Positions 10,751-53,676 of a stretch of DNA of 64,000 nucleotides are shown piece by piece; position 1 is the first letter of the stretch; every line of letters begins with the position of its first letter. The position numbers and the translations under genes are program-made. A model generated the notes under the pieces. The model worked only from the letters and a program-made list of their open reading frames with translations, was not told the origin of the DNA and made no database searches. Source of the stretch: Nitrospirota bacterium. Lineage in GTDB: Bacteria; Nitrospirota; Nitrospiria; JACQBZ01. The stretch spans positions 14,867-78,866 of the forward strand of contig JACQCA010000066.1 in the NCBI GenBank assembly GCA_016201865.1, given 5' to 3'.

Positions 10751-10802
10751 AGGCACCTCATTTCATCGCGGGCCGGACAAATTCTCTAAACGAACAGACG
10801 GA

Positions 10803-20948: not shown

Positions 20949-21036
20949 CGAATCCGCATGATCATCGGACGATACAACGGTTCTTGCTCATGCCGAAACC
21001 GGTCTGCTTGCTTACAAAACACCGACGAGAAGCGGA

Positions 21037-21065
21037 TTGACAAGACCATGGCCGTCCGATATAAT
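21037..21065 (+). promoter_or_regulatory. Consensus sigma-70 promoter for the cupredoxin gene and downstream genes
   Basis: TTGACA (21037-42)-N17-TATAAT (21060-65), a perfect match. Confidence 0.85.
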
Positions 21066-21101
21066 TTGTTTAAATATGTTTAGCCGCAGGAGGAGTTGGG
21101 A

Positions 21102-21461
21102 ATGAGAAAAATTGTATCGCTGTTGTTTGGAGTAACAGCCGCCTTTATCTTTCTGCCGTTGTTTTCCGTTCAGGGTGAGGAAGGAACGGCACACGAAATC
21201 ACGATCATCCGAAACGCCTTTAAACTTAACCCTCCGGAGATCACGATCAAGATCGGCGACACGATCAAGTGGACCAATACCGATGAACGCAAACACAATT
21301 TGGCCAGCATTCCGGGATCCGGTCCCACCGATGAACTAGAGATCTTCTCCGTCATGGAACCCGGCGCCGTCTATTCTCACACGTTCCAAACTCCCGGCGA
21401 GTATCCCTATTTCTGCTTCATCCACAACCAGATGACCGGAAAGATCACGGTGGCCAAATAG
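21102..21461 (+). CDS. Plastocyanin/amicyanin-like type-1 copper protein (cupredoxin)
   Basis: Signal peptide; ITIKIGDTIKWTN, KHNL (His), YPYFCFIHNQM (Cys-His-Met ligand loop); SD GGAGGAG. Confidence 0.92.
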   Translation: MRKIVSLLFGVTAAFIFLPLFSVQGEEGTAHEITIIRNAFKLNPPEITIKIGDTIKWTNTDERKHNLASIPGSGPTDELEIFSVMEPGAVYSHTFQTPGEYPYFCFIHNQMTGKITVAK

Positions 21462-21473
21462 CTTCGGCTTCCT

Positions 21474-22046
21474 ATGATGCGGCGCAAAAAGACGGGCGAA
21501 AAGGTCTGGGCTCTCGGTCTGATTTTCCTGATCGGCGGCCTTTATTTCTACGCCCAAAACGGTCTCGAAGCCCAGACCACCGAAAACCCGGCCGCGCCGG
21601 CCCAACCCTCTAAAGAAACAAAGACCGCCGGGGTCCCGCCAGCGGCTACTCCGTCGCAAGAAGAAGAGGAAGAAGAACATCCGCTGGCTTTCGACTACCT
21701 GCCCAAGACAAAACTGGGTTATGTGGACTGGGTCGCCGCCATTAAACAGGGGACCATCAAACCCCGCGACTCGCTGGAGCCCAGCAATCCGCCGGGAATG
21801 CCCCCGCTGAATTTTGACGTGATTTTTAAAGTGCCGGGCGATCTTCCCGACGTCGTTTATCCCCATTATCCTCATACCTTGTGGCTGGACTGCAGAAACT
21901 GCCATCCCAGCATCTTTTTGATGCGGGCGGGTTCAAACCCCGTCACGATGGCCAAGATTTTCAAGGGCGAGTATTGCGGCCGGTGCCACGGCGTGGTGGC
22001 CTTTCCGATCTCGGACTGCTCCCGTTGCCATTCAAGGCCAAAATAA
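21474..22046 (+). CDS. c7-type triheme cytochrome c with acidic linker
   Basis: N-terminal TM/signal; QEEEEEEHPLAF; YPHYPH; CRNCH, CGRCH, CSRCH. Confidence 0.92.
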   Translation: MMRRKKTGEKVWALGLIFLIGGLYFYAQNGLEAQTTENPAAPAQPSKETKTAGVPPAATPSQEEEEEEHPLAFDYLPKTKLGYVDWVAAIKQGTIKPRDSLEPSNPPGMPPLNFDVIFKVPGDLPDVVYPHYPHTLWLDCRNCHPSIFLMRAGSNPVTMAKIFKGEYCGRCHGVVAFPISDCSRCHSRPK

Positions 22047-22110
22047 ACGCATTGACTAATTATTTTCAATCATGATCCTAAAGCATCGTCGTGAAATACA
22101 GGGTGTTGCG

Positions 22111-23364
22111 ATGGCCAAATGGATGAGGGTTGATGGACACACTGCCCCTCGATGGGTTGCGGCCGTTGCGTTTTTTGCCCTCGTTTATGGCGGGATCATG
22201 GCCGACCGTTCTTTCTATTCTGAGATCGCCTCGGCCGCCGGCTCCGATTGGGCTGCCTTGGGGCAACCCGTGAAGGCCTTCTCGTCCGTTTGGGTGGATG
22301 TCGATGCTTCACGGCATGCCCTAAACCCATCCTTGGTATTCGTCGACACCACCCCGTTCTTGGGCTGGATCGAACTCAATACGCACGGCGTCTCGCGTGT
22401 TCATGTCCGACACTGGGACCGTTCCGAATGGGTCAAGGACGGCGGGGCCCTGAACATGGACGCGACCCATCGGGCCTCTGATCTTACCATGAGCTCAAAC
22501 GGTAAAACCCCGTATTTGGCCTGGACGGAACTGACTGCGAGAGACATCCCGCATCTCTATGTCAAACATTTGGTCGGAGATCAATGGGTCATTGACGGCG
22601 CTCGGTTGAATGTGGACCCGACGCATCGGGCCGTCAACCCGGCCCTGGCCGTGGCCGGAACGGTTCCCTATTTGGCCTGGAGCGAGCCGAGTGCGAGGGT
22701 CTTTCAACTTTATGTCAAGCATCTCTCCGATGACGGCTGGCATCTGGACGGGGTGGAGGGGTTGAATCGGTCGCCGACGCGCGACGCGATCGAGCCCGCC
22801 ATCGCGCTTCAGGGGTCGGTGCCTTTCGTTGCCTGGATCGAATTATCCGACCAGAATGTTTATCAGGCCTATGTCAAGCGCCGGGCGGGTTCCACCTGGG
22901 AAGGGTTGGGCGAAAGCCTTAATCTCGATCCGAAGAATCACGCATCGAGTCCTGCGATCACTTTTGTCGGTGAGACTCCGTACGTGGCCTGGACCGAAAT
23001 CAATGCGGAAGGCATATCCCAGATCCATGTGAAACACTGGGACAACGGCTCATGGATATCCGATGGGGGGAGCGTAAACATCGACCCCGCCCGCCACGCC
23101 TTAAGTCCTGCCCTGATAGGAGTCGGCTCGGCCGCGTACATCGCCTGGACGGAGTACGACGCCAAAGGCATTACCCAGATCCACGTCAAACATTGGTCAG
23201 AAACTCGGTGGGAATCGGACGATCCGCAGCTCAACACGATCCCGGCTACGGCCTCGTCGGCCCCTTTTCTGGCGAGTTCAGCGTCTTCTCTGTATGTGGC
23301 CTGGAGAGAGGTCTATCAGAATGGGATATCTCACATCGTTGTCAAGCGCTTGCCGGCTGAATAA
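22111..23364 (+). CDS. Exported or membrane-anchored 7-repeat beta-propeller protein
   Basis: Seven ~52-aa repeats of the form A.sP.l...g..PYvAW.E....g..qi.VKhw....W..dG..lN.dP; hydrophobic N-terminus; alternative start 22072. Confidence 0.8.
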   Translation: MAKWMRVDGHTAPRWVAAVAFFALVYGGIMADRSFYSEIASAAGSDWAALGQPVKAFSSVWVDVDASRHALNPSLVFVDTTPFLGWIELNTHGVSRVHVRHWDRSEWVKDGGALNMDATHRASDLTMSSNGKTPYLAWTELTARDIPHLYVKHLVGDQWVIDGARLNVDPTHRAVNPALAVAGTVPYLAWSEPSARVFQLYVKHLSDDGWHLDGVEGLNRSPTRDAIEPAIALQGSVPFVAWIELSDQNVYQAYVKRRAGSTWEGLGESLNLDPKNHASSPAITFVGETPYVAWTEINAEGISQIHVKHWDNGSWISDGGSVNIDPARHALSPALIGVGSAAYIAWTEYDAKGITQIHVKHWSETRWESDDPQLNTIPATASSAPFLASSASSLYVAWREVYQNGISHIVVKRLPAE

Positions 23365-23851
23365 CCTTTTCTCCGGGGGTGCCATCTTATTGATCTGTCT
23401 TACGATCAACGGCTGCGCACAACCGAAGGCGGTCAAATCCCAAATCGTTAAAAAGTCGGGGTTGGACGCGGAAGGCCGGCCGATCGCCTTGAGCGTTCTC
23501 CCCAAAACCATCGTGGGCGATATCGACTGGGTCGCCGCCCTTAAAGAAGGAATTCTCCAACCCAAGTATTCCCTGGAGGCTAACCCGTCCCCGGAAAGTC
23601 CGATTCTGAACATGGACATCGTCTTTAATATCGGTGAGGCATATCCTGTGCCCAATGTCGTCTTCCCCCATGCCCCGCACACCATGTGGCTTAGCTGCAA
23701 CGCCTGTCATCCGGCCATCTTCATCATGAGACAAGGCGCCAACCCGATCAGCATGGACCGCATCATCAAGGGGGAATACTGCGGCCGGTGCCACGGCGTA
23801 GTGGCCTTTCCGTTCACCGACTGTTTCCGTTGTCACTCCAGACCGAAATAA
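23321..23851 (+). CDS. c7-type triheme cytochrome c lipoprotein
   Basis: LLICLTINGC lipobox; FPHAPH; CNACH, CGRCH, CFRCH; exact start uncertain. Confidence 0.88.
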   Translation: MGYLTSLSSACRLNNLFSGGAILLICLTINGCAQPKAVKSQIVKKSGLDAEGRPIALSVLPKTIVGDIDWVAALKEGILQPKYSLEANPSPESPILNMDIVFNIGEAYPVPNVVFPHAPHTMWLSCNACHPAIFIMRQGANPISMDRIIKGEYCGRCHGVVAFPFTDCFRCHSRPK

Positions 23852-23858
23852 GGAGGGT

Positions 23859-24932
23859 TCATCCCGCGACGGAAAACACGATCGGATAGACGATCGTCAC
23901 ATCGCCGCCGGCGGGAGGGAACTTCCATTGCAGGACTCGCTTGACGAGCGCCTCTTCAAACGGGGTGTTCTTCATCGAACTGGAAACGACACGGCAATCG
24001 ATCACATCGCCGTTTGCGGAGATCATGAACTCGACCGTAACCGTCCCCCGGAGGGCGGGATTCTCGCGAAGGGCCTTATTGTACAGGAAACTGATCCCTC
24101 CTTTGTACGAATCGACGACTTGGGAGATGGACTCGTAACTCCTCAGGTTCTTCCCGTCCTCCGAGCCCTTGATCTGAAACGGGCTTTCCACCGCCGTGGT
24201 TTTGCGTTCCGTCAAAGACGATCCGCCCACATCCGTGTTTAGCTTCCCGATCATTTGATTGATCCCGCCGCTTCCGGTCACGGCCGACTCCCCCGCGGCT
24301 GGTTTCGACTGCTTGATTGACTTCTCCAGCTTGGCCACGATGTCGTCGATTCCCGCGGTTCCGGTCGGCGGCGCTTGGACGGCCGGTCCGGCCGACGTTC
24401 TGGGTGCCTGGCTGAGCCCTTTGATTTCTGAAAAGACCTTTTTCAGTTTTGCGTCCGGAACGCTTTCGGGCTCATTTCGTGTATCGGACTGCTTTAAAAG
24501 CCTGAGAAGACCGCTGTTCATCGCCACCTCAACGTTCTTTCTCCGTTGGGTCTCTTGTTGGGCCTGTATTTCTTCCGGAGTCGGGCCCTGCTGCTTGGCC
24601 ACCTCCTGGGGCGGTGCTGCCGACTCTTTCGCCTGTTCCGGTTTGGGTTCCTCCTTTTTAGTTTCCTTGGGTTTCTCTTCGGCCTTGGGTTTCTCTTCGG
24701 CCTTCGTCTCCTCTTTCTTCTTGACCTGCGGGGGCGGCGGGAGAGGTTTCGCCGCTTCGATGATCATCTTGGCGATACGCGGTGGGAGCCGGGTATAGTC
24801 CTGACGCTCCGGGTTTTTGACCGTGATCAGGTTCATAACAAGCGCCACGGCACCGTACAGAAGCACACAGCCCCAGGCGATTTGCCTAAAGCGTTGGTCA
24901 ATCTCATAGAATTCGACGGTAGTCGTTTTCAT
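23859..24932 (-). CDS. TonB-like energy transducer with AgmX/PglI (GltG-like) C-terminal domain
   Basis: N-terminal TM helix, Pro/Lys/Glu linker, C-terminal LYNKALRENPALRGTVTVEFMISANGDV...VLQWKFPP...TIVYPIVF; no FHA domain. Confidence 0.85.
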   Translation of the reverse strand: MKTTTVEFYEIDQRFRQIAWGCVLLYGAVALVMNLITVKNPERQDYTRLPPRIAKMIIEAAKPLPPPPQVKKKEETKAEEKPKAEEKPKETKKEEPKPEQAKESAAPPQEVAKQQGPTPEEIQAQQETQRRKNVEVAMNSGLLRLLKQSDTRNEPESVPDAKLKKVFSEIKGLSQAPRTSAGPAVQAPPTGTAGIDDIVAKLEKSIKQSKPAAGESAVTGSGGINQMIGKLNTDVGGSSLTERKTTAVESPFQIKGSEDGKNLRSYESISQVVDSYKGGISFLYNKALRENPALRGTVTVEFMISANGDVIDCRVVSSSMKNTPFEEALVKRVLQWKFPPAGGDVTIVYPIVFSVAG

Positions 24933-25432
24933 GTGGACTCTTTCTGGATCACGGCGAGATCGATCTGGCCGAACTCGGACTGGCTGCAGGTGTACATCAC
25001 TTTTTCCAGCAGCCGGAATGGAATCTGTTTATCCCCGAGGATGGTCACGCGGCCCTCAAACGGTTTCCCCGCGCTGGCGTTCGCAAAATACTTTCCCCGC
25101 TCGGCCGCGTAGTCCATCTCTTTTTTGAGGGCCGGGATCAAGAGATCCTCTTCCTTCAGGAGCGGACTGACATCGGCCACCTTTCGGCCGTCTACGATGA
25201 TGTCGGTTTGTGTGATCATCACGGTCAAGGTCGTATGCGGCGTCAACTGGGCTAACGATTCCGGAAGCTTGATTCGTTCCGCCGCAGGGATGGCCGAGGC
25301 CTCCCCCGAGAAATTGTAGAGCAGGAAGAGCACCAGGTTGGTGAACAGATCCACGAGCGACGTCAAGGTCAAAACCATGGAAGCCGCGGAGGCGTTTTTC
25401 CTTCGCTCGGAGAATCGCGATTGAACCCTCAT
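24929..25432 (-). CDS. ExbD/TolR (AglQ/S-like) protein with TM Asp
   Basis: LTLTSLVDLFTNLVLFLL TM; ILGDKQIPFRLLEKVMYTC. Confidence 0.9.
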   Translation of the reverse strand: MRVQSRFSERRKNASAASMVLTLTSLVDLFTNLVLFLLYNFSGEASAIPAAERIKLPESLAQLTPHTTLTVMITQTDIIVDGRKVADVSPLLKEEDLLIPALKKEMDYAAERGKYFANASAGKPFEGRVTILGDKQIPFRLLEKVMYTCSQSEFGQIDLAVIQKEST

Positions 25433-25929
25433 TGAACTTCTCCTAGTGAAACGTTCGGGAACAGGGAATAACTGGTTTTTTTGCCGTCCACCGTTACAAA
25501 GGTGACCCGCGTGGCGTCCATCACCTGGACTAATTGCTCATACGGAATATCCGGCTTGCTTAAGACGATCGCATTGTCGACCTTGGGAAATCGGGCCTTC
25601 AGTTGTTGAAGGAGCGACGAGAGGGCTTGCAGGTCATGCCCTTTGGGAGTTGGCTGGATGAGATCGATCACCTTATTCCCGTTGGCCACAACCAGCCCCT
25701 TCTCGGTAATCGAAATCGTCAGGATCAATTGTTCCCCCGCCGACGGCAATTTGCTCATCAAGTCGGCCGATGCCGGCGGGGGCAGATAGATTTCTAGAAC
25801 CGCCAGTCGCGTGAAGACGGCTGTGATGAGCAGGAACGGGGCCAGCACCACTAACAGGTTCATCATCGGCGTCAGATCGATATCGGTCGATTCAAGACGC
25901 CGGGTTCGTCTTCGGGACCGAAGCAACAT
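25429..25929 (-). CDS. ExbD/TolR (AglQ/S-like) protein with Asn at the TM Asp position
   Basis: DIDLTPMMNLLVVLAPFLLITAVF; PDIPYEQLVQVMDATR; SD AAAGGA before ATG 25929. Confidence 0.9.
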   Translation of the reverse strand: MLLRSRRRTRRLESTDIDLTPMMNLLVVLAPFLLITAVFTRLAVLEIYLPPPASADLMSKLPSAGEQLILTISITEKGLVVANGNKVIDLIQPTPKGHDLQALSSLLQQLKARFPKVDNAIVLSKPDIPYEQLVQVMDATRVTFVTVDGKKTSYSLFPNVSLGEVQ

Positions 25930-26590
25930 TTCCGGGTTTCCTTTCCGGGGCCGCCACCGTTTCACGGTTGGCGTAAAAATTAGTCAGCTTCGTCGAGTAC
26001 TGATCAATCGCATCAATGATCTTGGTGGTTCGGGCCTGAAGAAACGCATAGAACAGAATCAGCGGAACCGCCACGATCAAGCCGAAGGCCGTCATGTTCA
26101 GCGCGACCGATATGCCTCGGGCCAGCAGCACCGCCTTTTGAGACGGATCGGCCGCGGAGACGGCCGCAAAGGCCCCGATCACACCGACGATCGTTCCCAA
26201 CAGACCCAACAAGGTGGCGACGTTCGCCAGAATCGGCAGATAGGCTGTCCGTCGCTCCAAGGGGGGGAGAACCTCCAACATTGCCTCTTCCATTGAACGC
26301 TGGATCGGTTCACGCGAGGCCGTGGGTTTCGCCGCTTTCAGTCCTGCCAGCAGGACATGATAGATCGGCCGCGTGCTGGACTGACAAAGCTTAATGGCGT
26401 CCTCGGTCTTCTGATCCGCCAAAAAATTCTTGACCTGTTTCCAAATGGACTCCCCGTTGGCGGAAGCGCGAGTGATGTAGAGCGTCCGTTCGATCACGAT
26501 GGCCGTTCCAAGGGCCGCCACCAAGAGAACGGGGTACATGAAAAACCCGCCCTCCATAAAAAAATTCCCGATCACGTTGAATATATTCAT
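25892..26590 (-). CDS. MotA/TolQ/ExbB (AglR-like) proton channel
   Basis: GGFFMYPVLL, ANVATLLGLLGTIVGVIGAF, GISVALNMTAFGLIVAVP; SD AAGGAG before ATG 26590. Confidence 0.93.
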   Translation of the reverse strand: MNIFNVIGNFFMEGGFFMYPVLLVAALGTAIVIERTLYITRASANGESIWKQVKNFLADQKTEDAIKLCQSSTRPIYHVLLAGLKAAKPTASREPIQRSMEEAMLEVLPPLERRTAYLPILANVATLLGLLGTIVGVIGAFAAVSAADPSQKAVLLARGISVALNMTAFGLIVAVPLILFYAFLQARTTKIIDAIDQYSTKLTNFYANRETVAAPERKPGNVASVPKTNPAS

Positions 26591-26606
26591 TCCATCTCCT
26601 TTCCGC

Positions 26607-27044
26607 TCAGGGACCCGAACGCGACTCAACAGCTCGTATCTCTCGACTGTATCTCTCCTTATCGAGGGGAGTATAGATCTCTTCCAGGTACCCCCCCTGG
26701 ACTTCCTTCTCCTCCGATAACAACGGGTCCGGTTCCGTTCCCGGGAGAAGACACCCGTTCTTGAATTCACAGACGACCGTAGATAGGACCGGGTCCTTCC
26801 AGGGCAGCGAATCGTTCATCTGGGGTCGTTCGACCGTCCCGACGATCTCGGTCTCCAAAAGCTTCAGCGACCCTAGAACATCTCTGAACTTTCCGGTGAT
26901 CTCGGTTTCCTTGAGCTGGAGCGGTCCGCGGTTCCGCTCGGGCACCTTGGAATCCTGGGCCTGCGTCGAGCCGAGACCGTTCAGCGATCCGGTCACGGCG
27001 ATGACGATGACGATCCGCTTGATGTTAGGGTTGTCCAACCACAT
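26607..27044 (-). CDS. Small exported protein, GltF-like by position and motif
   Basis: Signal peptide; ETEIVGTVERPQMNDSLPWKDP resembles the small conserved protein found between the TPR genes and exbB in such clusters. Confidence 0.6.
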   Translation of the reverse strand: MWLDNPNIKRIVIVIAVTGSLNGLGSTQAQDSKVPERNRGPLQLKETEITGKFRDVLGSLKLLETEIVGTVERPQMNDSLPWKDPVLSTVVCEFKNGCLLPGTEPDPLLSEEKEVQGGYLEEIYTPLDKERYSREIRAVESRSGP

Positions 27045-27732
27045 TCGCCGCTCCATGCGCCGTTCTCTGCTCGAGATCGGCGATCCAGATATCCACAGTC
27101 TGATTTTTGCCGGCCAAGGCTTCATAGTTCTGATAGTAACGCACCGCTTCTTTTGGCTGATTCAGGTAGAGATCGTACAGCACGCCCAAGTTGTAGTAAA
27201 CCGGCGCGAACTTCGGATTCAACGCCATCGCCTTCCGATAAATCTTCTCGGCCTTTTGAAAATCCCCCTGCTCTCGATACGCGATGGCGAGATTGTTATA
27301 CAGTTCGGGGAAGACGGGCCGCGCCGGAGACGCCTCCGGGGCCCGTTCCGAAAGAGCGATCGCCTTTTGATACTCGTCGATGGCTTTGTCCAACATTCCT
27401 CTCCGCCGGTAAAGGATCCCCAGTGTGTTGTGCAGATCGATCCGATCGGGATGGGAAGCCACCAACGGCTCCAGCGCCGACTGGGCGTTTTCGAGCTGCC
27501 CTTGATCGAGATAAGAGAGCGCCTGCCGATAGCCGGCTTGAAGTCCTCCGTCCATTGCTGTTGAACCGGTCGTCTTCGTGGGGGATCCCGCGACCGCCTG
27601 CCCCTTCGTCGCGGACCCTTCCGGGCGAGGGACGGATGCGCAACCGAAGATCAAACCCGTCAGCAGCCACCACAACGCCGCCCGACGGGCGATGGCCGTT
27701 CCCATGCGTGTCCATCGATCCGCGCGGTTCAT
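27025..27732 (-). CDS. TPR lipoprotein (GltE/AglT-like)
   Basis: LIFGC lipobox; three TPRs (HNTLGILYR, YNNLAIAYR, YYNLGVLYDLYL); ends VDIWIADLEQR. Confidence 0.8.
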   Translation of the reverse strand: MNRADRWTRMGTAIARRAALWWLLTGLIFGCASVPRPEGSATKGQAVAGSPTKTTGSTAMDGGLQAGYRQALSYLDQGQLENAQSALEPLVASHPDRIDLHNTLGILYRRRGMLDKAIDEYQKAIALSERAPEASPARPVFPELYNNLAIAYREQGDFQKAEKIYRKAMALNPKFAPVYYNLGVLYDLYLNQPKEAVRYYQNYEALAGKNQTVDIWIADLEQRTAHGAANVVGQP

Positions 27733-30700
27733 GGGGTTAAAACCAGCTCCCGAGGGATGACCTCGTCCAGTTCCCGCTTCCGGTACCGAGCCGGCATGAG
27801 CCTCGCCAGATCGTCGTAGCTCTGCTTGATCCAGGGATCATACAACCCCAGTTGTTGGGCCCGATGGACATTGCTTTCATAAGCTGCGATGGCTTTTTCC
27901 TCGAAGGGAAAGGCCTGCTCCTCAATCAAGAAATTATACTGTTCCAGCTGCTGCGGAGTCAAATCCGCCGGACGTTCCGATTCCAGCAACGCGTTTCGAA
28001 ATTTTTCAAACACCACCCCGATCTTTTGAGTCGCGGCCGTTGTGACCTCGGCCACGCTGAACTCGGTCGCTTGGGCGTACCCTTCCAGAACCTCCTTTAA
28101 CAATTTTTTCTTTTTGGCCAGGTTTTTTTCCAGCGGCGATACCAGCTTCACCTCGTCGAACTGGATCAGGAGTTCATCGGCCATTAGAAGATGGGCCTTG
28201 GCCACATAGTAGCCCGCCGGCGATGCAGCCGCATCGCCTCGCCCGTACCGGTCAATGAGCGTTTGGAGAATCGGCTGGGCTTCCTGCCGACGGCCTTCTT
28301 GGAGCTTGGCCCATGCCAGCTTGAACGTGGTTTCCACAACCTGCTCATACTCGCCCGGGTATTGATCCAGATAGGTCTGGTACACCGCCCCGGCCTTCAT
28401 CCAGTCGCCCAGTTGTTCGTAAAGCCGACTGGCGGCTAACAAAGCCTCTCCGGTCGTCTTGCGATCAACGCCTAATTTTACCACAGATTCGTATCCTTTG
28501 GCTGCCTCTCTCAGGCGGCCGCTCCGCTCATGGATCTTGGCCACCTGGATCGCCGCATGGGGACCGTAGGTTGACGATGGATACTCCTGCAACAAGATCG
28601 TAAACGCCTTGAACGCTCCTTCCGAGTCATCGCGAAGCTGTGCGGTATTACCGGCGTCGAACAACGCCACCGGCGCGATCTCGCTTTCCGGCACTTCGGC
28701 CTGGACCTTCAGGAACCCGGCCTGCGCCTCGGTCTGCTTTCCGGCCGTCTTCAGACCTTCGGCCTGTTTGTATAACGAGGATGCCCACAACCGCTTCAGT
28801 TCTTCGCGCTCCTGATTCTTTGCCGAAATCTCATCCTGCGCCAATTTTCGGTAGACGGCCGCCGCCTGCTCGTACGCACGCTCTTCGAAATAATGATCCG
28901 CAATGAGCCGTTCCGAACGATAGGACAGATCCACTTTGGAAGCCGTCTGGAGCCCCTTGACCTTCTCGGCCAAGTCCTGGGCTTCCGTCACCTTTCCGGA
29001 CGCGAGGAGGGTTCGTCCCACCTGCAACAACACCTCCGGAACCTTTTCGCTCAAGGGATGGTTCGGGTACCGTTGCAGTTGCATCTGAAACAGTTGCAGC
29101 GCTTCATCCAACTGGTTTCGGAGCAGGGCCGCGCTTCCACCGTCGAACAATGCGACCGGGGCGATTTCACTCCCCGGCACTTCCAAATAGACCTTCATGA
29201 ATTCCATCTGCGCTTCCCGCAGATTCCCCTCGGCCTTGAACTCTTCGCCCCGTTTGTACAACGATGTGGCCCACAACCGCCGGAGATCCTCGTCGTCCCC
29301 GACCACTCCGCCCGTTTGCGTCAATTGTTCATAGGCCGCCGCCGCCTGCTCGTACGCATGCTCTTCGAAGTAAGCGTTCCCAATCATTCGCTGGGCCTTG
29401 AGCGAGGGGCTATCCGTCGGAAGAGAGGCCTTGACGATCGCCTCCGCCATCGAACGGGCCGCCGGGAAGTTTCCCGCATGGTAGTAGGTCTCGGCCCCCT
29501 TCCAAAGGACATCCATCACGCGGGAATCGTTCGGAAAGGCCTCCGCAAATCGTTTGCAATTCCGCGCAAGCTTCAGCACCGTCGGACTGATCGTGGGATC
29601 CTGACGTCCCTGACCGATGATCTTATCCAGCGTCACGATGGCGGCGTACCCCGATTCGGCGCTGTCTTGATGAAGGGGATATTCGTAAGCGGTGCGTTCG
29701 TATTCAGCCACGGCCTCGGGGTAGCGTCGAAGCTCAAACAGGCCCTCGGCCGAGAGAAAATTGATTCGCGCAGCTTCCGGCTCTTTTGGAAAGGACTTCA
29801 GGTACCGCCGATACCAGGTGAGCGCTCTCTCGTAATCCGGCGCTCGTCGAGTCTGCTGGGCCTCGGAGTGGTAGAACAGGGCCATCTGGCTGATTAATTG
29901 CCGCGTCATGGGTCGCGCCCGGTTCCGACTCGGGGGTGTCGCCTTCTGGTACCAGACGCTCTCATCGCCGAAACGCTCCACAAAGCTGATGCGTGCGCGA
30001 TTGGCCAGATCCACCAATTTCAACCGTTGATAGGCCTCAATGATGTCCATCTGGACCATCGGCGCCTCCTCATGGAACGGATAAGTTTTGATAAACGTTT
30101 CGTAGGCCCCCACCGCGTCCTGCACCCGTTTCTGGGCCATATACAAATCGCCCTGTTTCCGATAAATGAGATCCTCATAGTCCCGATGTCCCGCTTTTTC
30201 GAAATAATCCTGAATCTTGGTCGGCGGACCGAGGTACGAAAATGCAAAGGCCAGGCCGCGGATGATCTCCATGATCTGGTCCCATTCAGTGGCCGACATC
30301 GACCTCGGATCCAGTCGCGGCGGGTTGCTTCCCCTCGCGACGCGTTTTCGATCCACCAGACGGGTGAATATTCCTGCCGCTCTCTCATATTCTTGAAGCG
30401 AAAAATAAGACCACCCCAGTTTGTACAAAGCGCGCTCAATCAGATCGGGGTCTTTGGAATTGATCACCTTTTGATACGCCTCCGCCGCCTGCCGGTACTG
30501 GTTCGAGTCGTAATATGTTTCGGCCAAACGGAAGACCGCTTCCAGGCTCAACGGACTCGGCGGATAATGGTCCGCCATTCGTCGCAGCACGGCCATCTCC
30601 TGTTCCGTGTCGCCCTCGTCTTCATAAACATGGGCCAATTGGTACAGCACCAAGTCATTTTCAGGTCGGTTGGGGTAGAGGGTCAACAATTTTTCGTAAA

Positions 30701-31130
30701 TCTTTCTGGAACGCGCATGGTCGATTCTGGGAGGAGCCGGCTTCTGGACCGAACGACCCTGCTGGATGAGGTTGAGTTGCTGGTTATATCGGAACAGCTC
30801 CTGACGATACATCTGCTCCTCGAACTTTCGGTACAGATCGGCGAGTTGATGCATCGTCTTCGCCTTCAGTTCGCTCTTTTCTCCGGAATCGTCGAACAGG
30901 CTGCCCTGTTGTGTCCCCATGGTGTTTAAGACGGACTCCTTCGCAATCGGAGCCGATTGGTCTTCCATCACCTCGGTGACGACGGCGTTGATCTTCTTTT
31001 CGTCCAGGACATCCGGTTGCCGGTACAGGTCACACCCGCCCAGGCCGATCCAAACGGCCGCGGCGGCGAGAATCATGCCCTTCTTGACCACCGGGGCGGC
31101 GTCCGGATTTCTTTTAGGGTGCCGTACCAT
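27729..31130 (-). CDS. Large TPR lipoprotein (GltD/AgmU-like)
   Basis: LGGC lipobox; many TPRs; C-terminal LEEQAFPFEEKAIAAYE-like motif (IEEQAFPFEEKAIAAYESN...PWIKQSYDDL); start at ATG 31130 (SD CAGGA) or 31076. Confidence 0.8.
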   Translation of the reverse strand: MVRHPKRNPDAAPVVKKGMILAAAAVWIGLGGCDLYRQPDVLDEKKINAVVTEVMEDQSAPIAKESVLNTMGTQQGSLFDDSGEKSELKAKTMHQLADLYRKFEEQMYRQELFRYNQQLNLIQQGRSVQKPAPPRIDHARSRKIYEKLLTLYPNRPENDLVLYQLAHVYEDEGDTEQEMAVLRRMADHYPPSPLSLEAVFRLAETYYDSNQYRQAAEAYQKVINSKDPDLIERALYKLGWSYFSLQEYERAAGIFTRLVDRKRVARGSNPPRLDPRSMSATEWDQIMEIIRGLAFAFSYLGPPTKIQDYFEKAGHRDYEDLIYRKQGDLYMAQKRVQDAVGAYETFIKTYPFHEEAPMVQMDIIEAYQRLKLVDLANRARISFVERFGDESVWYQKATPPSRNRARPMTRQLISQMALFYHSEAQQTRRAPDYERALTWYRRYLKSFPKEPEAARINFLSAEGLFELRRYPEAVAEYERTAYEYPLHQDSAESGYAAIVTLDKIIGQGRQDPTISPTVLKLARNCKRFAEAFPNDSRVMDVLWKGAETYYHAGNFPAARSMAEAIVKASLPTDSPSLKAQRMIGNAYFEEHAYEQAAAAYEQLTQTGGVVGDDEDLRRLWATSLYKRGEEFKAEGNLREAQMEFMKVYLEVPGSEIAPVALFDGGSAALLRNQLDEALQLFQMQLQRYPNHPLSEKVPEVLLQVGRTLLASGKVTEAQDLAEKVKGLQTASKVDLSYRSERLIADHYFEERAYEQAAAVYRKLAQDEISAKNQEREELKRLWASSLYKQAEGLKTAGKQTEAQAGFLKVQAEVPESEIAPVALFDAGNTAQLRDDSEGAFKAFTILLQEYPSSTYGPHAAIQVAKIHERSGRLREAAKGYESVVKLGVDRKTTGEALLAASRLYEQLGDWMKAGAVYQTYLDQYPGEYEQVVETTFKLAWAKLQEGRRQEAQPILQTLIDRYGRGDAAASPAGYYVAKAHLLMADELLIQFDEVKLVSPLEKNLAKKKKLLKEVLEGYAQATEFSVAEVTTAATQKIGVVFEKFRNALLESERPADLTPQQLEQYNFLIEEQAFPFEEKAIAAYESNVHRAQQLGLYDPWIKQSYDDLARLMPARYRKRELDEVIPRELVLTP

Positions 31131-32664
31131 AATCCTGCATGAGTATCGTGTTCTTCGCAATTCCGACATTGGCCCGTACCACCAGATCATCAATCTGTTT
31201 TATCCTGATCGAGAGATGATCGGTCGCCGCGGTTTTCAGCAACTCATTGATGTTCCGTCGAATGTCCTTCAACCGGGCTTGGATCGGCTCCCACACCGTC
31301 CCATCGACCGGATCGCCGGTCGGGTTATTTGGGTCATTCGTTTGTAGAAATTTTTGAGCGATCTGCTCTTCCAGCCGCGCCCCGTCGGCGTAGAGATCTA
31401 TCAGCTCCGGAAAGTCCCGTTCCAGGACCAGATCCGGCCGTGAAGAAAACGCGGGCGATGGTTTTTCCATCGAGGCCGACCCCGGTTTTAGGAGCAGATT
31501 CTCCGCGCCTTCGGCTTGAATCTTCTGGATCCGCTTCTTCAGGTTCTCTCTCTCGGCCGCATACGTCTGCAGCGCGCTTTGGTAACTGTCCACCGATCGG
31601 CGATAGGCATTCATTTTGGCATAACAGCTCCCGACATAAAGACGCGCCTCAAGGCCGTACGGATGGGTCGGAGCCTGCTCGATCAGATCCCGAAAAATGA
31701 CGATGGCCTTGACGCACTTCTCCATCCCCAAATAGGCCCTGCCGATCCCGGATCGTGCCTCGGGCCAGTATTGACTCTGGGAAGGTATGGCTTCAAAGAG
31801 GACGGCTGCCTCCTTATATCTTTTCCGTTCAAGAAAGGCGAATCCCAAGGTGACGCGCGTCTTGTTGACCAGTTCCCGTAGAACCGGATCCTCTCTCGTG
31901 TTTAAGGCCATCAGCTTCTCAAACGGCACGGGGGTTGAAGATCCGGTCTCCACTATTTTAAGATCGGCAAGTCCCATCGAATAGAGGGCATAAGGGTAGT
32001 CGTCGCTCCCTCTCCCAATCTTATTGAGGAGCTCGGTCGCTTTCCGGTATTCTTTCAAATACAGATAACTGTTCCCGGCCAGGTAAACCGCCTCGTTCCA
32101 AGATGGCCATTGGCTTGATTCCGGGGTTTTAATTTTAAAGAAGGCGCCCAAGGCCTGTGGATAATCGCCTCGGCGATAATACAGTTTTTCCAATTGAAAC
32201 CAGGCCTCGGTTGCGATCGACTCGCGACGCGTCCGGACCGCAAGATCTTTTAAGGTGCGTTCCACTTGGACAACCAATCGCGAGCGAACAAGCTGTTCCG
32301 CAAGCCGCAGCTGCATCTCGTCCGATGAAAGACGACCGGGTTCCGCCGGGGTCTTCCCCTGATCCGCCGCCTGTTCCAGGTCCTTCATCAACACCGCAAT
32401 CGTTTGAAGGTCCGTCTCTGCCCGGGGCCGATTCGACGCCTTCCGGACCGCTTCAGCGGACTGATCCATGTGAATGATGTCCATCTTCACCAAGGAGAGC
32501 TTCTCCTCAACCCGGCGGAGCTGTCCCTGAAAAGGAGTCGCGGTCGGCTCCGCTTGAGCCGAAGCGGCGATCGAGACAATGAACAGAAAACCGCAGACGG
32601 CACGGCCTGCTCGGCGATGTCCGACCCCTGGAGGGGTTCTGCGCGACTGATTTTGACGGTTCAT
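31114..32664 (-). CDS. Exported TPR/coiled-coil protein (GltC-like)
   Basis: Signal peptide ending ASAQA, TPR block in the middle, coiled-coil ends; start reassigned to ATG 32664. Confidence 0.7.
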   Translation of the reverse strand: MNRQNQSRRTPPGVGHRRAGRAVCGFLFIVSIAASAQAEPTATPFQGQLRRVEEKLSLVKMDIIHMDQSAEAVRKASNRPRAETDLQTIAVLMKDLEQAADQGKTPAEPGRLSSDEMQLRLAEQLVRSRLVVQVERTLKDLAVRTRRESIATEAWFQLEKLYYRRGDYPQALGAFFKIKTPESSQWPSWNEAVYLAGNSYLYLKEYRKATELLNKIGRGSDDYPYALYSMGLADLKIVETGSSTPVPFEKLMALNTREDPVLRELVNKTRVTLGFAFLERKRYKEAAVLFEAIPSQSQYWPEARSGIGRAYLGMEKCVKAIVIFRDLIEQAPTHPYGLEARLYVGSCYAKMNAYRRSVDSYQSALQTYAAERENLKKRIQKIQAEGAENLLLKPGSASMEKPSPAFSSRPDLVLERDFPELIDLYADGARLEEQIAQKFLQTNDPNNPTGDPVDGTVWEPIQARLKDIRRNINELLKTAATDHLSIRIKQIDDLVVRANVGIAKNTILMQDYGTAP

Positions 32665-32785: not shown

Positions 32786-34099
32786 TCAAACCGTTTTCGT
32801 TCCCCTTCCCACACCGACGTACCGAAAACCGGCCTGGCGCATGTGCGGTTCATCATAGACATTTCGAAGGTCGATAAAGACGGGGTTGCGAAGCGCTCGG
32901 CGCAGCCGGTCCAGATCGAGGTTGCGGAATTGATTCCATTCAGTCAACAGGACCACGGCATCGGCGCCGCGCGCCGCCTCATAGGCGTCGTCGCAACAGA
33001 CGATTTCCTTCAATACCTTCCGGGCCTCGGACATCGCCGCCGGATCATGGACCCGAATCTTTGCGCCCGCTCCCAACAGGGCCTGAACGATTTCGATCGC
33101 CGGCGATTCCCGGATGTCGTCCGTATTGGGCTTAAAGGCCAATCCGAGAACGGCCAGCGTCTTCTTCTCCAGCCCGCCCAGAGCCTGCCGGATTTTTTCG
33201 ACCATCACGACCCGCTGCTTTGTATTCACCCGAACGACGGCGTTGAGCAGCTCCAGATCGCGGCCATGTTCCTTGGCCATCTGAATCAGGGCCATCGTGT
33301 CTTTCGGCAGGCAGGAGCCGCCGTAACCGGGTCCGGGATGGAGAAACTTCGGGCCGATCCGGCCGTCCAAGCCCATCCCCTTGGCCACTTGATGCACATC
33401 CGCTCCGACCTTTTCACAGAGGTTGGCCATCTCGTTGATAAACGAGATCTTCGTCGCCAGAAAGGCATTGGAGGCATACTTGATCATCTCGGCCGTGGCG
33501 ACGTCCGTTACAATGAACGGCGTCTCGATCAAGTAAAGCGGCCGGTAGAGATCTTTCATGATCGCAACCGCTTGTTGGCTGCCGGTCCCGATCACGACGC
33601 GATTGGGCCTTAAGAAATCCTCAATCGCCGAGCCTTCGCGCAGAAATTCCGGATTCGAGACGATATCAAAATCCACCTGTTCCTTGAGGCTCCGCCCGAT
33701 GATCTTCCGGAGCCGCTCGCCTGTCCCGACCGGAACGGTGCTCTTTGTGACGATCACTTTGTATCCGTCGAGGTGCTGCGCGATCGTCTCGGCAACATCT
33801 TCGACGTACGCCAGATTGGCCGATCCGTCTCCCCGCGGGGGCGTCCCGACGGCGATAAAAACGGCCAACGCTCCTCGAATGGCCGCCGCAATATCCGTGG
33901 TAAACTGGAGCCGGCCCGCCGTCGAATTTTTCCCGACCAGCTCCCTTAAACCTGGTTCATAAATCGGGATCAGGCCTTTTTGGAGAGCCGTAATCTTCTC
34001 CTGATCTTTGTCTGCACAGGTGACGTGGACTCCAAGCTCGGCAAAACACGCGCCGGTAACCAAGCCCACATACCCTGTACCAATGACCGCAACATTCAT
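32786..34099 (-). CDS. ugd: UDP-glucose 6-dehydrogenase
   Basis: MNVAVIGTGYVGL, KSTVPVGT, SNPEFLREG, KYASNAFLATKISF, GYGGSCLPKD, LAFKPNTDDIRES. Confidence 0.95.
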   Translation of the reverse strand: MNVAVIGTGYVGLVTGACFAELGVHVTCADKDQEKITALQKGLIPIYEPGLRELVGKNSTAGRLQFTTDIAAAIRGALAVFIAVGTPPRGDGSANLAYVEDVAETIAQHLDGYKVIVTKSTVPVGTGERLRKIIGRSLKEQVDFDIVSNPEFLREGSAIEDFLRPNRVVIGTGSQQAVAIMKDLYRPLYLIETPFIVTDVATAEMIKYASNAFLATKISFINEMANLCEKVGADVHQVAKGMGLDGRIGPKFLHPGPGYGGSCLPKDTMALIQMAKEHGRDLELLNAVVRVNTKQRVVMVEKIRQALGGLEKKTLAVLGLAFKPNTDDIRESPAIEIVQALLGAGAKIRVHDPAAMSEARKVLKEIVCCDDAYEAARGADAVVLLTEWNQFRNLDLDRLRRALRNPVFIDLRNVYDEPHMRQAGFRYVGVGRGTKTV

Positions 34100-34244
34100 C
34101 AGACGCTCCGCCTTTGTTTCGTTACAAAACGTAGGATACCATATCAGAAATCCCTGCGGCCTGGCAAGGAACGCTTGCACCGGCCGGCCGGAAGACCTAT
34201 ACTTGTATTAATTCCTTTTCCCCTATCGATGAAGGTGTTCCGTC

Positions 34245-34947: not shown

Positions 34948-35454
34948 TCATTTCAGTTCACGCCTTTTCTTCTCGGCCTGCATATCCAGATCCAGCAGCC
35001 GCTGCAGATCGCTCCGGAGTTTTTCTTTCTCCGTCTTTAACGATTCCATCTGGGCCAAAAAATTCAACCAATTCTGGGCCCGGCTCTTCCAGGGGCTTTC
35101 GGGATATTTCTGGACGACCTGCTGAAAATCTCGAACCGCCGCCTCATAATCGGCCGACGCATTTTTGAAATAGATTTCGGTATAGGCGATGTTGTACTGC
35201 GCGTGATCCGCAAGATCGCCGTCCGGAAACCGGTTTACCACATACCGATATTCCTTGATGGCTTCGGCATACTTTCCGCCCTCGAAGAAGGCCTCGGCCT
35301 TCTTGAAATGCTCGGCCGGGGCCGTCGCCTCCTCCAGCGACGCCCAACCGGCACAGCCCGAGAAAAAAAGAAGGAGGCAGAGCCGCCCCATTCCCCAGAG
35401 CGGGAACCTCGGCCCAACCGCATCGAACAGAAAGCGCCCTTCCTTGATCCTCAA
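34948..35454 (-). CDS. TPR/BamD-like lipoprotein with C-terminal coiled coil
   Basis: LFFSGC lipobox; two helical repeats (AIKEYRYVVNRFP, FQQVVQKYPESPW); coiled tail LRSDLQRLLDLD; start overlaps the cyclase stop. Confidence 0.75.
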   Translation of the reverse strand: MRIKEGRFLFDAVGPRFPLWGMGRLCLLLFFSGCAGWASLEEATAPAEHFKKAEAFFEGGKYAEAIKEYRYVVNRFPDGDLADHAQYNIAYTEIYFKNASADYEAAVRDFQQVVQKYPESPWKSRAQNWLNFLAQMESLKTEKEKLRSDLQRLLDLDMQAEKKRRELK

Positions 35455-36776
35455 ACCGTCCTCCGCTGATCCACGACGTAGACGCTTCGAGGAAAGGTCT
35501 TCGCGTAGTGCTTGAGCTGCGCCGCGACTTCGGCCACCTGCATGGGACTGGTGATTACGCGCTTCTGGTTCGTGACGACCGCGATCGAAACCGTCATGAA
35601 CGGGAACTGCTGCTCGACATCCTTGCGATCGCGCGAAATAATATAACCCCGCCGGCGATCCTCGTCGTCGTAAAAGTCGGGAACGGTCTGATCAAAGTTC
35701 ACAATGAGGTCTTGGCACAATTTGTCCATGCGCGAGGGGTCGGTGATGACGACGAAGTCGTCCCCGCCGATGTGGCCGACAAAATCCTGCTCCGCCCCAA
35801 CCATCTTGACCGTGCCCGTCAGAAGAGTCGCGACCTTTCTTAAGACCTCGCTCCCCCGGACATAACCGTATCGGTCGCCAAAGGCCTTAAAGTTGTCCAG
35901 GTCGATCAGGCAAAAAGCAAACGGCGCCTTTTTCTGAAGACGGGTCAACAGCGCCTTTTCGATGGCCAGGTTTCCCGGAAGACGCGTCAGCGGACTCGCG
36001 TCCAGATTCATCTCGCCCAGCTCCTTCAGCCGCTTGGACATCCAACGGAACGAATCGGCCAACTCGCCCACCTCGTCCGTCGCCTTGATGTTCAAGGCTT
36101 GGTCGAACAGTCCCTGTCCGATGTAGTGAGCCGCCTCTTGAAGCTGCCGGATTGAAAAACTGATGTTCGCATTGATGAAAATGGTAAACCCAACGCCGAA
36201 AAGAACGCTGATCACCACCAAGACCGCCGTCACATTAAACGCCTGTTGGCTCAATCGACTGGCGAGGAGCGTTTTCCCATTCTGGTCTTCACGCGCGTGC
36301 CGTTCCAGTTCCCGGAGCTGCTTGATCATTTCGTCAAGGCGGCTCTTCATCGGCCCTTCCGAAAGGGTCTTGGCCTTATACTCTTCTTTACGATCGAGAT
36401 CAGCCTGTTCTTCTTTGAAAAATTGCGTGTACTCCTCATGGAGGCGACGGATCTCCTCCCTCAGCTTTTGGTCCTCCGGCGACAGGGAGTTCAGTTGATC
36501 TAACTTTGACCGAAACTCCTCGCTTCGGCTCAAAAAAAGGGTCTGAACCGCCGGGTCGCGTAAGATGACGGATCGTTTCTCATATAGATCCTGGGCCAAC
36601 AGGCTTTCGGTCGTCTGGCGGCTGGCCTCGATGATGGGGAGGTCTCGTTGCACAATACTGTCGCTCATCCGTCGAAGATCTCGAAGGCCTAAAACCGCAT
36701 ATAAACCGGTCAGCAGGGTTAAGAGGACCATGATCGAAAAGCCGAGCAGCATCTTTTTAATCAGGGTCAGTTTCAT
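35451..36776 (-). CDS. Membrane diguanylate cyclase (periplasmic four-helix sensor, HAMP, GGDEF with GGDDF motif)
   Basis: Two TM helices, DEVGELADSF HAMP, PLTRLPGN, DLDNFKAFGDRYG, GHIGGDDF; no RxxD I-site. Confidence 0.92.
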   Translation of the reverse strand: MKLTLIKKMLLGFSIMVLLTLLTGLYAVLGLRDLRRMSDSIVQRDLPIIEASRQTTESLLAQDLYEKRSVILRDPAVQTLFLSRSEEFRSKLDQLNSLSPEDQKLREEIRRLHEEYTQFFKEEQADLDRKEEYKAKTLSEGPMKSRLDEMIKQLRELERHAREDQNGKTLLASRLSQQAFNVTAVLVVISVLFGVGFTIFINANISFSIRQLQEAAHYIGQGLFDQALNIKATDEVGELADSFRWMSKRLKELGEMNLDASPLTRLPGNLAIEKALLTRLQKKAPFAFCLIDLDNFKAFGDRYGYVRGSEVLRKVATLLTGTVKMVGAEQDFVGHIGGDDFVVITDPSRMDKLCQDLIVNFDQTVPDFYDDEDRRRGYIISRDRKDVEQQFPFMTVSIAVVTNQKRVITSPMQVAEVAAQLKHYAKTFPRSVYVVDQRRTV

Positions 36777-40351: not shown

Positions 40352-40586
40352 CCACCATGCTCCAGATCAGAAGGGCCGATATCGCCAACAGGAGACCGAG
40401 AACCTTGCCGACCCCCGACGTGTCTCCGGCCATAAGCGCCTCGACCGAAAACTGTTCGCCCGCCAGCCAGAACAGAACCCCCGTGCCCGCGATGAAACCG
40501 CCGCCTTTCAACCAGTGACGATTGTAGAACTGGCCCAGGCCCGGAACGACCGCGGAGAGAAGGACGGCGATGCCGGGCCGTCTCAT
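40311..40586 (-). CDS. Small membrane protein
   Basis: AVLLSAVVPGLGQFYNRHWLKG plus further hydrophobic segments ending IWSMVDAY. Confidence 0.75.
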   Translation of the reverse strand: MRRPGIAVLLSAVVPGLGQFYNRHWLKGGGFIAGTGVLFWLAGEQFSVEALMAGDTSGVGKVLGLLLAISALLIWSMVDAYHSAKTPSTGK

Positions 40587-40966
40587 AGGGCGATCTCCGA
40601 TTGGCCCATCAGTGCCCGCATGACGAACTGCACGACTTTTTCACGGTCGGCGTCGTTGATCGTCTTGAACTGAATTCCCATTCCGGGAGAAAAACCCTTA
40701 GGGTCAAAGTCCGGACGGACCCAGGCGACCTGGCCGTCTACTTTGACTGAATCGCCCTGGCCCGGCAGACTGAACTCCAGACTCACGGCCGTCCCCACCG
40801 GCAAGGGCGACAGGGTGTCTACAAAAAGCCCGCCGCCGCCCATAACGGCCGTAAAACCTTCCTTCACCCCTTTGAGGGGATCCCGGTATTGGATTCGAAT
40901 CGCGAGCGGAACCCGCGGGTAGTTCCGTTTTTTAGGAGACGGGATGGGAGGCTGTGTCGCCGCCAT
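40583..40966 (-). CDS. PilZ-domain protein
   Basis: RNYPR (RxxxR), GLFV...LPVGTAVSLEFSLPG, GQVAWVR, GMGIQF; start approximate. Confidence 0.85.
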   Translation of the reverse strand: MAATQPPIPSPKKRNYPRVPLAIRIQYRDPLKGVKEGFTAVMGGGGLFVDTLSPLPVGTAVSLEFSLPGQGDSVKVDGQVAWVRPDFDPKGFSPGMGIQFKTINDADREKVVQFVMRALMGQSEIAL

Positions 40967-41000
40967 TTCTGCTTCTCCTTCCTTCGGGGTGACCCCGTTC

Positions 41001-50023: not shown

Positions 50024-50029
50024 TGATTC

Positions 50030-53667: not shown

Positions 53668-53676
53668 GGATCGACC

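Follow-up and report, generated by a model that had tools for sequence, protein, structure and literature searches.

What kind of machine is encoded by an operon that joins TolQ-like and TolR-like motor genes and a TonB-like gene to genes for three tetratricopeptide repeat (TPR) proteins and one small exported protein, and what could such a machine do in a Nitrospirota bacterium? This question is raised by eight consecutive open reading frames (ORFs) at positions 23859–32664, all on the minus strand, of a 64,000-nucleotide (nt) stretch of contig JACQCA010000066.1; by "the window" we mean the whole of this stretch. The operon very probably belongs to the family of the Agl-Glt "core complex", the ancestral complex from which Myxococcus gliding evolved (PMC3169522). 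An earlier note on this DNA had presented the locus as a complete ancestral core outside the myxobacteria. Its presence there stands, but the headline is not new because systems of this kind, also outside the myxobacteria, have been known since 2011 (PMC3169522). What is new is the host phylum, Nitrospirota, absent from the carriers named in 2011, together with an apparently minimal eight-gene form, an Asn/Asp asymmetry between the two TolR-like subunits, and a family of small exported proteins, here called X.

The operon begins with P1 (31114–32664, 516 amino acids), a GltC-like periplasmic TPR protein, followed by the GltD-like TPR lipoprotein P2 (27729–31130, 1133 amino acids) and the GltE-like TPR lipoprotein P3 (27025–27732, 235 amino acids). 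P4, or X (26607–27044, 145 amino acids), is exported and corresponds to the "additional gene" of the core complex. The motor genes come next: P5 (25892–26590, 232 amino acids) encodes an AglR-like TolQ/ExbB-type proton channel subunit with three transmembrane helices, and P6 (25429–25929, 166 amino acids) and P7 (24929–25432, 167 amino acids) encode AglQ-like and AglS-like TolR/ExbD paralogues, respectively. The last gene, P8 (23859–24932, 357 amino acids), encodes a GltG-like transducer of the TonB/TolA type. From P1 to P8, the junctions are overlaps of 17, 4, and 20 nt, a gap of 16 nt, and overlaps of 38, 4, and 4 nt. Because successive genes overlap or nearly touch, P1–P8 form a translationally coupled operon. 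The ORFs and their Pfam and NCBIfam matches bear out the gene set that the earlier note had listed (three TPR proteins, a small exported protein, one TolQ-like, two TolR-like, and one TonB-like protein), and its "nearly all" overlapping stops and starts amount to six of the seven junctions. Its layout of eight genes is retained with two corrections: all eight ORFs are on the minus strand, and P1, the first of the TPR proteins, is no lipoprotein. The starts of P1–P4 agree with gene calls on the same DNA in an independent public assembly, and those of P5–P8 were set by the orthologous Nitrospirota locus L001. A scan for promoters and terminators gave counts no higher than in shuffled sequence, and we therefore claim no operon boundaries from it.

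In order and sizes, the window matches the published core gene for gene. Luciano et al. defined this complex (Group B) in 2011 as gltC, gltD, gltE, gltG, aglR, aglQ, and aglS plus an extra small gene, in the order gltC-gltD-gltE-extra small gene-aglR-aglQ-aglS-gltG, carried by about 11 genomes from outside the myxobacteria (Geobacter, Methylibium, several gammaproteobacteria, and Fibrobacter); the core genes are insufficient for gliding motility (PMC3169522). For Methylibium, Table S3 of that paper gives Mpe_A1224 (634 amino acids) as GltC, A1225 (941) as GltD, A1226 (243) as GltE, A1228 (217) as AglR, and A1229 (170) as AglQ, leaving A1227 unlisted. The skipped small-gene tags are Mpe_A1227, Gura_3074, Maqu_1599, Sfri_1227, and Tgr7_0540, and the same tag is skipped in Geobacter, Marinobacter, Shewanella, Thioalkalivibrio, Saccharophagus, and Teredinibacter (PMC3169522). 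The window has this unlisted gene between gltE and aglR as well, and a Methylibium sp. locus in our own comparison (L051) shows the same order and sizes. The earlier note had equated the gene order with a GltC/D/E/F/G plus AglR/Q/S core; the order agrees with Table S3, but GltF lies outside the published ancestral core (PMC3169522). Further likenesses are the domain content, a short GltG without an FHA domain, and the absence of GltA/B/H/K/I/J. Differences from the published core include the Nitrospirota host and the identity of just 24–46% between the window's proteins and proteobacterial copies.

The absences were assessed by scanning the larger ORFs selected across the 64-kb window, a selection and not every ORF. 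We found no outer-membrane β-barrel, TonB-dependent receptor, tolB, pal, ybgC, or von Willebrand factor A (vWA) protein among them, and no GltA/B/H, GltK, or CglB. This agrees with the earlier note, which had listed GltA/B/H, GltI/J, the FHA domain, a TonB-dependent receptor, and tolB/pal as missing here. The search for a partner outer-membrane barrel that it had called for was carried out across these 64 kb of the genome, and none was found there.

BLASTP comparison identified P1, P2, P3, P5, P6, P7, and P8 as positional homologues of genes in Piscinibacter, Thiodiazotropha, and other proteobacteria, with E values against the Piscinibacter locus (L005) and other loci ranging from 2e-4 (GltC-like protein versus L005) down to about 1e-75 for other components; P4 was connected by profile alignment. 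P1 carries an ordinary cleavable signal peptide, with ...ASA at the cleavage site followed by QAEP, so it is not a lipoprotein, and it shows weak TPR matches in Pfam. It aligns with the first gene of the proteobacterial clusters at E = 3e-16 and 24% identity and with its counterpart in L001 at 44% identity. P3 has the lipobox IFGC followed by ASV, matches TPR_1 and TPR_2 in Pfam, and shares 30–35% identity with the product of the third gene in the proteobacterial clusters. P2 has the lipobox LGGC followed by DLY, with Asp at +2, many TPR repeats, and a conserved non-TPR C-terminal signature (IEEQAFPFEEKAI ... LMPARYRK). It is 26–33% identical to proteobacterial GltD-like proteins across about 1000 amino acids, and its profile collects 744 protein clusters at E ≤ 1e-10.

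Four stretches of P2 resemble YbgF in the Pfam and NCBIfam scans, and the YbgF/CpoB TPR unit is its best NCBIfam match; the score of 157 bits passes the cutoff of 90 only by summing the four TPR stretches within 1133 amino acids. Annotators at JGI call relatives of P2 "TolA-binding protein". Such features raise the possibility that the operon is a second, divergent Tol-Pal-type system, in which P5-P6-P7 would be TolQR, P8 would be TolA, P2 a giant CpoB/YbgF-like partner, and the lipoproteins would take the role of Pal, with outer-membrane constriction or stability as the function. The motor genes lend this some weight. P5 matches MotA_ExbB in Pfam (94.5 bits), its best NCBIfam match is TolQ, and in an alignment to E. 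coli TolQ it keeps the equivalents of T145, T178, and P187. P6 and P7 both match ExbD in Pfam. The closest solved structures in the PDB are TolQ for P5 and TolR for P6, and a PDB search with P5–P8 turned up no relatives of the Agl or Glt type. The authors of the M. xanthus model also liken AglR5QS-GltG to TolQ5R2-TolA (PMC11761067).

Membership in Tol-Pal nevertheless fails. P5 scores 67.8 bits against a TolQ equivalog cutoff of 221, the TolR equivalog reaches 20.9 against 127, and tolB, pal, and ybgC are missing from the scanned window ORFs. The TolR-like pair would be a heterodimer here, and the C-terminus of P8 is of the TonB type rather than of the TolA domain III type. What the two systems have in common is the architecture and channel residues of P5, the TolR-like P6 and P7, a long extended transducer, and a periplasmic YbgF-like TPR protein with lipoproteins; the logic of a proton-driven 5:2 motor is probably shared as well. 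We consider it unlikely that the operon is a Tol-Pal system in its own right. The proposal concerns mechanism more than it competes with the core-complex assignment, with which it overlaps, and as a description of the likely mechanics the Tol-Pal likeness is fair. Against proteobacterial AglR-like proteins, P5 is 34–46% identical (BLASTP).

P8 begins with about 18 cytoplasmic residues, followed by one transmembrane helix, a Pro/Lys/Glu-rich linker, and a domain resembling the C-terminal domain of TonB. No FHA match was found in the Pfam and NCBIfam scan, and P8 lacks an FHA domain because just those roughly 18 residues precede the transmembrane helix. P8 matches TonB_C in Pfam and passes NF033768, the model for the AgmX/PglI C-terminal domain, with 82.6 bits (cutoff 40); proteobacterial core GltG-like proteins behave in the same way, scoring 65–76 bits on NF033768. 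The GltG equivalog is matched at model positions 375–649, the part from the transmembrane helix to the C-terminus, with E = 2.6e-16 but a score far under the cutoff, and the GltJ model reaches just 16.5 bits (cutoff 450). In the AlphaFold2 model of P8, a transmembrane helix (residues 7–35) leads into a low-confidence linker and a C-terminal domain (residues 266–353) with pLDDT >95, which is predicted with high confidence to adopt the TonB C-terminal-domain fold. The top Foldseek matches of this domain in the PDB are the C-terminal domains of TonB, FusB, and HasB (target-normalised TM-score 0.6–0.7, rmsd 2–3 Å); TonB C-terminal domains are hit with E values of about 1e-3 and TolA domain III more weakly, with 0.03–0.4.

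These matches could also be read as an ordinary ExbB-ExbD-ExbD-TonB system that energizes TonB-dependent transporters of the outer membrane whose genes lie elsewhere, with the TPR genes accessory or unrelated. The Pfam assignments of P5–P8 would fit this explanation, as would the score of P8 on the generic tonB_Cterm model (48.7 bits, cutoff 27.1, passed) and the likeness of its fold to TonB C-terminal domains that bind TonB boxes. We also count in its favor that two exbD genes occur together in known clusters of other phyla. The shared features are thus the TonB C-terminal-domain fold, the Pro-rich linker, and the MotA_ExbB/ExbD motor. The equivalog scores, however, lie far under their cutoffs for ExbB (42.8 versus 206) and TonB (21 versus 265), and no NCBIfam match to the ExbD equivalog was listed. 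P5 is closer to TolQ than to ExbB, and P8 scores higher on AgmX/PglI than on tonB_Cterm. Moreover, the four non-motor genes share translational coupling with the motor genes and keep the same order in 80 loci of three phyla wherever the contig allows; three TPR proteins and X invariably accompany the motor, and a linked receptor is missing from the window ORFs scanned. An ordinary TonB system therefore strikes us as improbable. The earlier note had named grouping with canonical Tol-Pal or ExbBD-TonB systems, without Glt homology, as what would speak against its assignment; instead, the Tol, Exb, and TonB equivalog cutoffs failed and P8 passes the AgmX/PglI model.

Returning to the core complex, the two TolR-like proteins reveal a feature that bears on the motor itself. 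In an alignment to E. coli TolR, Asn24 of P6 stands opposite the proton-binding Asp23. The AglQ-like class to which P6 belongs has the consensus ITAFxNLMVILVPFLL across 70 loci. P7, by contrast, keeps the transmembrane Asp (D28); the consensus of its AglS-like class across 69 loci is LVSLMDIFTILVFFLL, with the core LVSLMDIFTIL, and P7 is 34–42% identical to its proteobacterial counterparts (BLASTP). In about 70 loci the two classes can be told apart clearly, and the asymmetry of Asn in the first and Asp in the second TolR-like subunit holds family-wide in the loci sampled. We found no earlier report of an Asn in the AglQ-like subunit in the literature. According to a review, M. xanthus AglQ and AglS both carry the conserved Asp (PMC9389320), and AglQ D28N abolishes motor function in M. 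xanthus (PMC3858216). The core-complex AglQ-like subunit therefore differs from its M. xanthus counterpart, a contrast that rests on the review's statement and not on M. xanthus sequences.

The small protein P4 carries an ordinary signal peptide and matches no Pfam or NCBIfam family. Its sequence contains a strand-like motif (LLETEIVGTVERP..SLPWKD) and a C-terminal helix (EEIYTPLDKERYSREI), and its AlphaFold2 monomer model (pTM 0.26) shows disorder over most of the chain and a C-terminal helix, confidently predicted, at residues 129–142. BLAST left P4 unlinked beyond Nitrospirota, but in a 14-sequence profile alignment it aligns with the same-position small gene of 13 other loci. Across these 14 sequences, G69, P74, W82, and R134 are invariant, and the shared motif is TxIxGNxELPKVLYIVPWK … LDExLxPxDRDxFxRxxxY. 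The X family comprises 4283 clusters at E ≤ 1e-3; among the 120 best of these, none has a recorded Pfam domain and the few named ones are "hypothetical". We found no earlier report that recognizes X as a large family without a Pfam or NCBIfam model. Two local features of the Nitrospirota copies were also observed. The strand-like motif ETEIxG is doubled in all three of them (LKETEITG… and LLETEIVGT…), and the window copy has a 20-residue insertion (VLSTVVCEFKNGCLLPGTEP) with two Cys when compared to its closest relatives in L001 and L008.

Because of its gene position, its size, and its predicted architecture (disorder, a strand-like motif, and a C-terminal helix), P4 resembles GltF, although it is not established as GltF. 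Anaeromyxobacter has the order gltC-gltD-gltE-gltF-gltG, and its GltF homologues are about 89 amino acids long (Table S3 of PMC3169522); proteobacterial X proteins are mostly about 90–105 amino acids in length, compared to 145 for P4.

The GltD-like profile has relatives in at least 583 species-representative genomes, and we compared the loci of the best 80 of these. They span three phyla: 77 are from gammaproteobacteria, Burkholderiales, or unclassified Pseudomonadota, two from Nitrospirae, and one from Methylomirabilis, with no myxobacterial locus among these best 80. Hidden Markov models (HMMs) of the components recover the same gene order in the 80 loci wherever the contig is long enough, and this order is seen in Nitrospirota, Methylomirabilis, and many gamma- and betaproteobacterial loci.

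Proteobacterial loci carry additional genes. Directly upstream of the GltC-like gene, nearly all of them have a ninth gene, Up9, that encodes an exported protein of roughly 175–190 amino acids (L003 2163–2693, L005 1742–2266, L006 1627–2163, L007 2137–2706, and most of L010–L087). Up9 matches no Pfam or NCBIfam family, and an Up9 HMM found nothing in the window or the Nitrospirota loci. Many proteobacterial loci also have same-strand extras upstream, including AhpC/TSA-type thioredoxin-like proteins (33 loci), DUF3570 proteins (15 loci), and small outer-membrane-protein (OMP) β-barrels, and ApbE is found in 18 loci, upstream in 16 and downstream in 2 (examples of upstream extras: L021 4257–4802, L055 2657–5200, L020 870–1679, and L086 3496–4536). 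In proteobacteria, the products of these extras are candidates for outer-membrane or redox partners. None of the extras is in the window, and the Nitrospirota version, lacking the additional neighbors of the proteobacterial loci, therefore marks an apparently minimal eight-gene set. Its doubled X motif is another difference from the published core.

Two further loci depart from the common pattern. L009 (846–8554; Nitrospirae metagenome-assembled genome (MAG) JACRHF01) contains a very divergent second Nitrospirota version, with 33% identity in GltD and a longer GltG-like protein of 487 amino acids. It has no separate GltE-like gene, and its GltD-like ORF also matches the GltE HMM, suggesting a GltD-like/GltE-like fusion. 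L014, from a Candidatus Methylomirabilis MAG (NC10), runs from the GltD-like gene into the AglS-like gene, where this contig of 5.7 kb breaks off. The proteins it encodes clearly follow the proteobacterial type, as the X motif ADLEGTSIIGSRELPKVTYIIPWKK illustrates, which suggests that this cluster arrived by horizontal transfer.

The window operon has been inherited vertically in its Nitrospirota clade, because its chromosomal context is kept in the related Nitrospirota loci L001 and L008 as far as each reaches. L001 has rsmI-ugd upstream and a cytochrome cluster downstream of the operon; L008 has GGDEF-TPR-rsmI-ugd upstream, and its contig stops inside the operon. The GC content of the operon equals that of its flanks. 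The closest relatives of P8 and P2 are 62–75% identical, and the named ones come from Nitrospirae, Nitrospirota, or Nitrospiria MAGs. The window DNA itself is present in four groundwater metagenome runs of one study.

This upstream context prompts another explanation. The gene ugd, encoding UDP-glucose dehydrogenase (32786–34180, minus strand), lies on the same strand 121 nt upstream of the operon, and the adjacency is kept in three Nitrospirota loci. The operon could accordingly be a polysaccharide-handling machine tied to ugd, like Myxococcus Agl-Nfs with its spore-coat polymer, for which the finding that AglRQS drives Nfs-dependent spore-coat assembly in M. xanthus offers a precedent (PMC3858216). 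Yet none of the 78 loci from outside Nitrospirota or of divergent type has ugd next to the operon, ugd is kept together with rsmI and a GGDEF gene, and there are no Wza, Wzc, or glycosyltransferase genes nearby. Because it is not adjacent in any of these 78 loci, we regard the ugd linkage as a local feature of this lineage's chromosome. A functional link to ugd was rejected, the adjacency being limited to the Nitrospirota lineage, and a polysaccharide machine is very improbable.

Set beside the M. xanthus Agl-Glt and Agl-Nfs machines, the core-complex operon shares a TolQ-like channel with two different TolR-like proteins, a TonB-like transducer with an AgmX/PglI-type C-terminus, a TPR lipoprotein of roughly 1100 amino acids with smaller TPR partners, and a small disordered protein in the GltF position. 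It differs in that the GltA/B/H barrels, GltK, CglB, the cytoplasmic protein GltI, GltJ, and AglZ were not found in the scanned window ORFs. In addition, its GltG-like protein is without both FHA domains, its genes form one operon here and three clusters there, and its AglQ-like subunit has Asn at the position for which a review gives Asp in both subunits of M. xanthus (PMC9389320).

How might such a minimal set work? In the AlphaFold model of the M. xanthus machine by Cambillau and Mignot (2025), AglR5-AglQ-AglS resembles TolQ5R2 with the GltG transmembrane helix docked, and the GltG linker wraps GltD, the central pillar (PMC11761067). In this prediction, GltE sits on the C-terminus of GltD, GltC is bound to GltD, and the largely disordered GltF lends a strand to the TonB-like domain of GltG and places its own C-terminal helix inside GltC (PMC11761067). 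An AglR-GltG interaction was also observed in a two-hybrid assay (PMC3169522). Because all partners in this model or their positional equivalents are present, we propose the same chain for the window, from P5/P6/P7 to P8 to P2/P3/P1. The operon would encode a self-contained relative of the Tol/Ton systems powered by the proton-motive force. P5 would form an inner-membrane pentameric channel around a P6-P7 heterodimer in which P7 supplies the protonatable Asp and P6 an Asn. Proton flow would drive this 5:2-type motor, which would act on the single transmembrane helix of P8. The Pro/Lys/Glu-rich linker of P8 would cross the periplasm, and its TonB-type domain would engage a TPR scaffold made up of the large lipoprotein P2 as pillar, the small lipoprotein P3, and soluble P1. 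P4 would probably be a connector like GltF, with its strand on the TonB-like domain and its C-terminal helix on the GltC-like protein.

The output of this chain would be cyclic mechanical work on lipoprotein-anchored envelope components, rather than gliding or the energizing of a nearby TonB-dependent receptor; outer-membrane tethering or maintenance, or the movement of envelope cargo, could be its role. The earlier note had described a trans-envelope device powered by the proton-motive force, and the published core order, the positional homologues, and the AgmX/PglI match of P8 lend support to that description.

The individual contacts among P1–P8, modeled on the M. xanthus proteins, should be taken as tentative. 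Equally speculative is a more specific idea, that X is the ancestral counterpart of GltF, a disordered adaptor resembling a TonB box, which would add its conserved strand to the TonB-like domain of the GltG-like protein and seat its C-terminal helix in the GltC-like protein. On that idea, the core complex would constitute a third self-contained class of Tol/Ton-type systems, in which the "receptor" would be a lipoprotein-anchored periplasmic TPR scaffold and not an outer-membrane barrel, and the stator would be intrinsically asymmetric, with one Asp and one Asn subunit.

Several observations weigh against the core-complex account as a whole. P8 scores 59 against the GltG equivalog cutoff of 650, and P3 reaches 53 bits where the GltE equivalog requires 225. 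An NCBIfam scan of 56 X-family members (E ≤ 10) found no GltF-like model and gives no sequence support to a relationship between P4 and GltF. For monophyly with GltC/D/E/G and AglRQS we rely on Luciano et al. (PMC3169522); more broadly, the link to M. xanthus GltC, GltD, and AglRQS rests on the phylogeny in that paper and on NCBIfam models named for myxobacterial proteins. The proposed contacts are all carried over from a model built for a distantly related machine. Because P6 is without the Asp needed by TolR, ExbD, and MotB, the motor may not run like a canonical 5:2 unit. We identified no outer-membrane partner or substrate, the partner search covering the window, and none of the RNA runs searched for the locus hold it. 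With these points taken into account, core-complex identity together with the proposed working powered by the proton-motive force still appears likely to us, an overall judgement that lies between our confidence in family membership and that in the contacts.

The remaining content of the window is mostly housekeeping genes. Upstream of the operon, ugd is followed by rsmI, a gene for a small TPR lipoprotein, and a gene for a GGDEF protein. The last of these, a membrane diguanylate cyclase (4HB_MCP, HAMP, and GGDEF domains; 35451–36776), lies within 10 kb upstream of the operon and is kept in L008; a PilZ-domain protein (40583–41029) is also encoded within 10 kb upstream. On the other side, a plus-strand cluster (19587–23851) encodes cytochrome c7-type proteins, a cupredoxin, a cytochrome with a Big_2 domain, and a 430-amino-acid protein of no family. 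This cluster is convergent with the operon, with its end 7 nt away from the stop codon of P8, and it is kept in L001. The replication-origin region occupies 47469–61739, with gidB, mnmG, mnmE, and yidC on the minus strand followed by dnaA, dnaN, gyrB, and gyrA on the plus strand, and the cumulative GC skew has its minimum near 50–52 kb. The operon lies about 20–30 kb from this region and is oriented with replication. A low-GC patch at 8727–10756 (0.47–0.50 versus about 0.57 elsewhere) holds a restriction-modification pair, consisting of an MjaI-type restriction endonuclease and an N4/N6 DNA methylase with a C-terminal SNase domain, and was probably acquired horizontally.

The role of the ancestral Agl-Glt core in bacteria that do not glide has been a standing question since 2011, and in the literature outside Myxococcota and Bdellovibrio we found no paper that assigns a function to the core complex in non-gliders. 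The uncultured host offers no direct functional test, and better hosts are known in Marinobacter, Cellvibrio, and Shewanella frigidimarina. These results now place an intact core in a clade of uncultured groundwater Nitrospirota and highlight two features of the family that bear on its mechanism: one TolR-like subunit without the Asp, and a small protein that resembles GltF or an equivalent of the TonB box.

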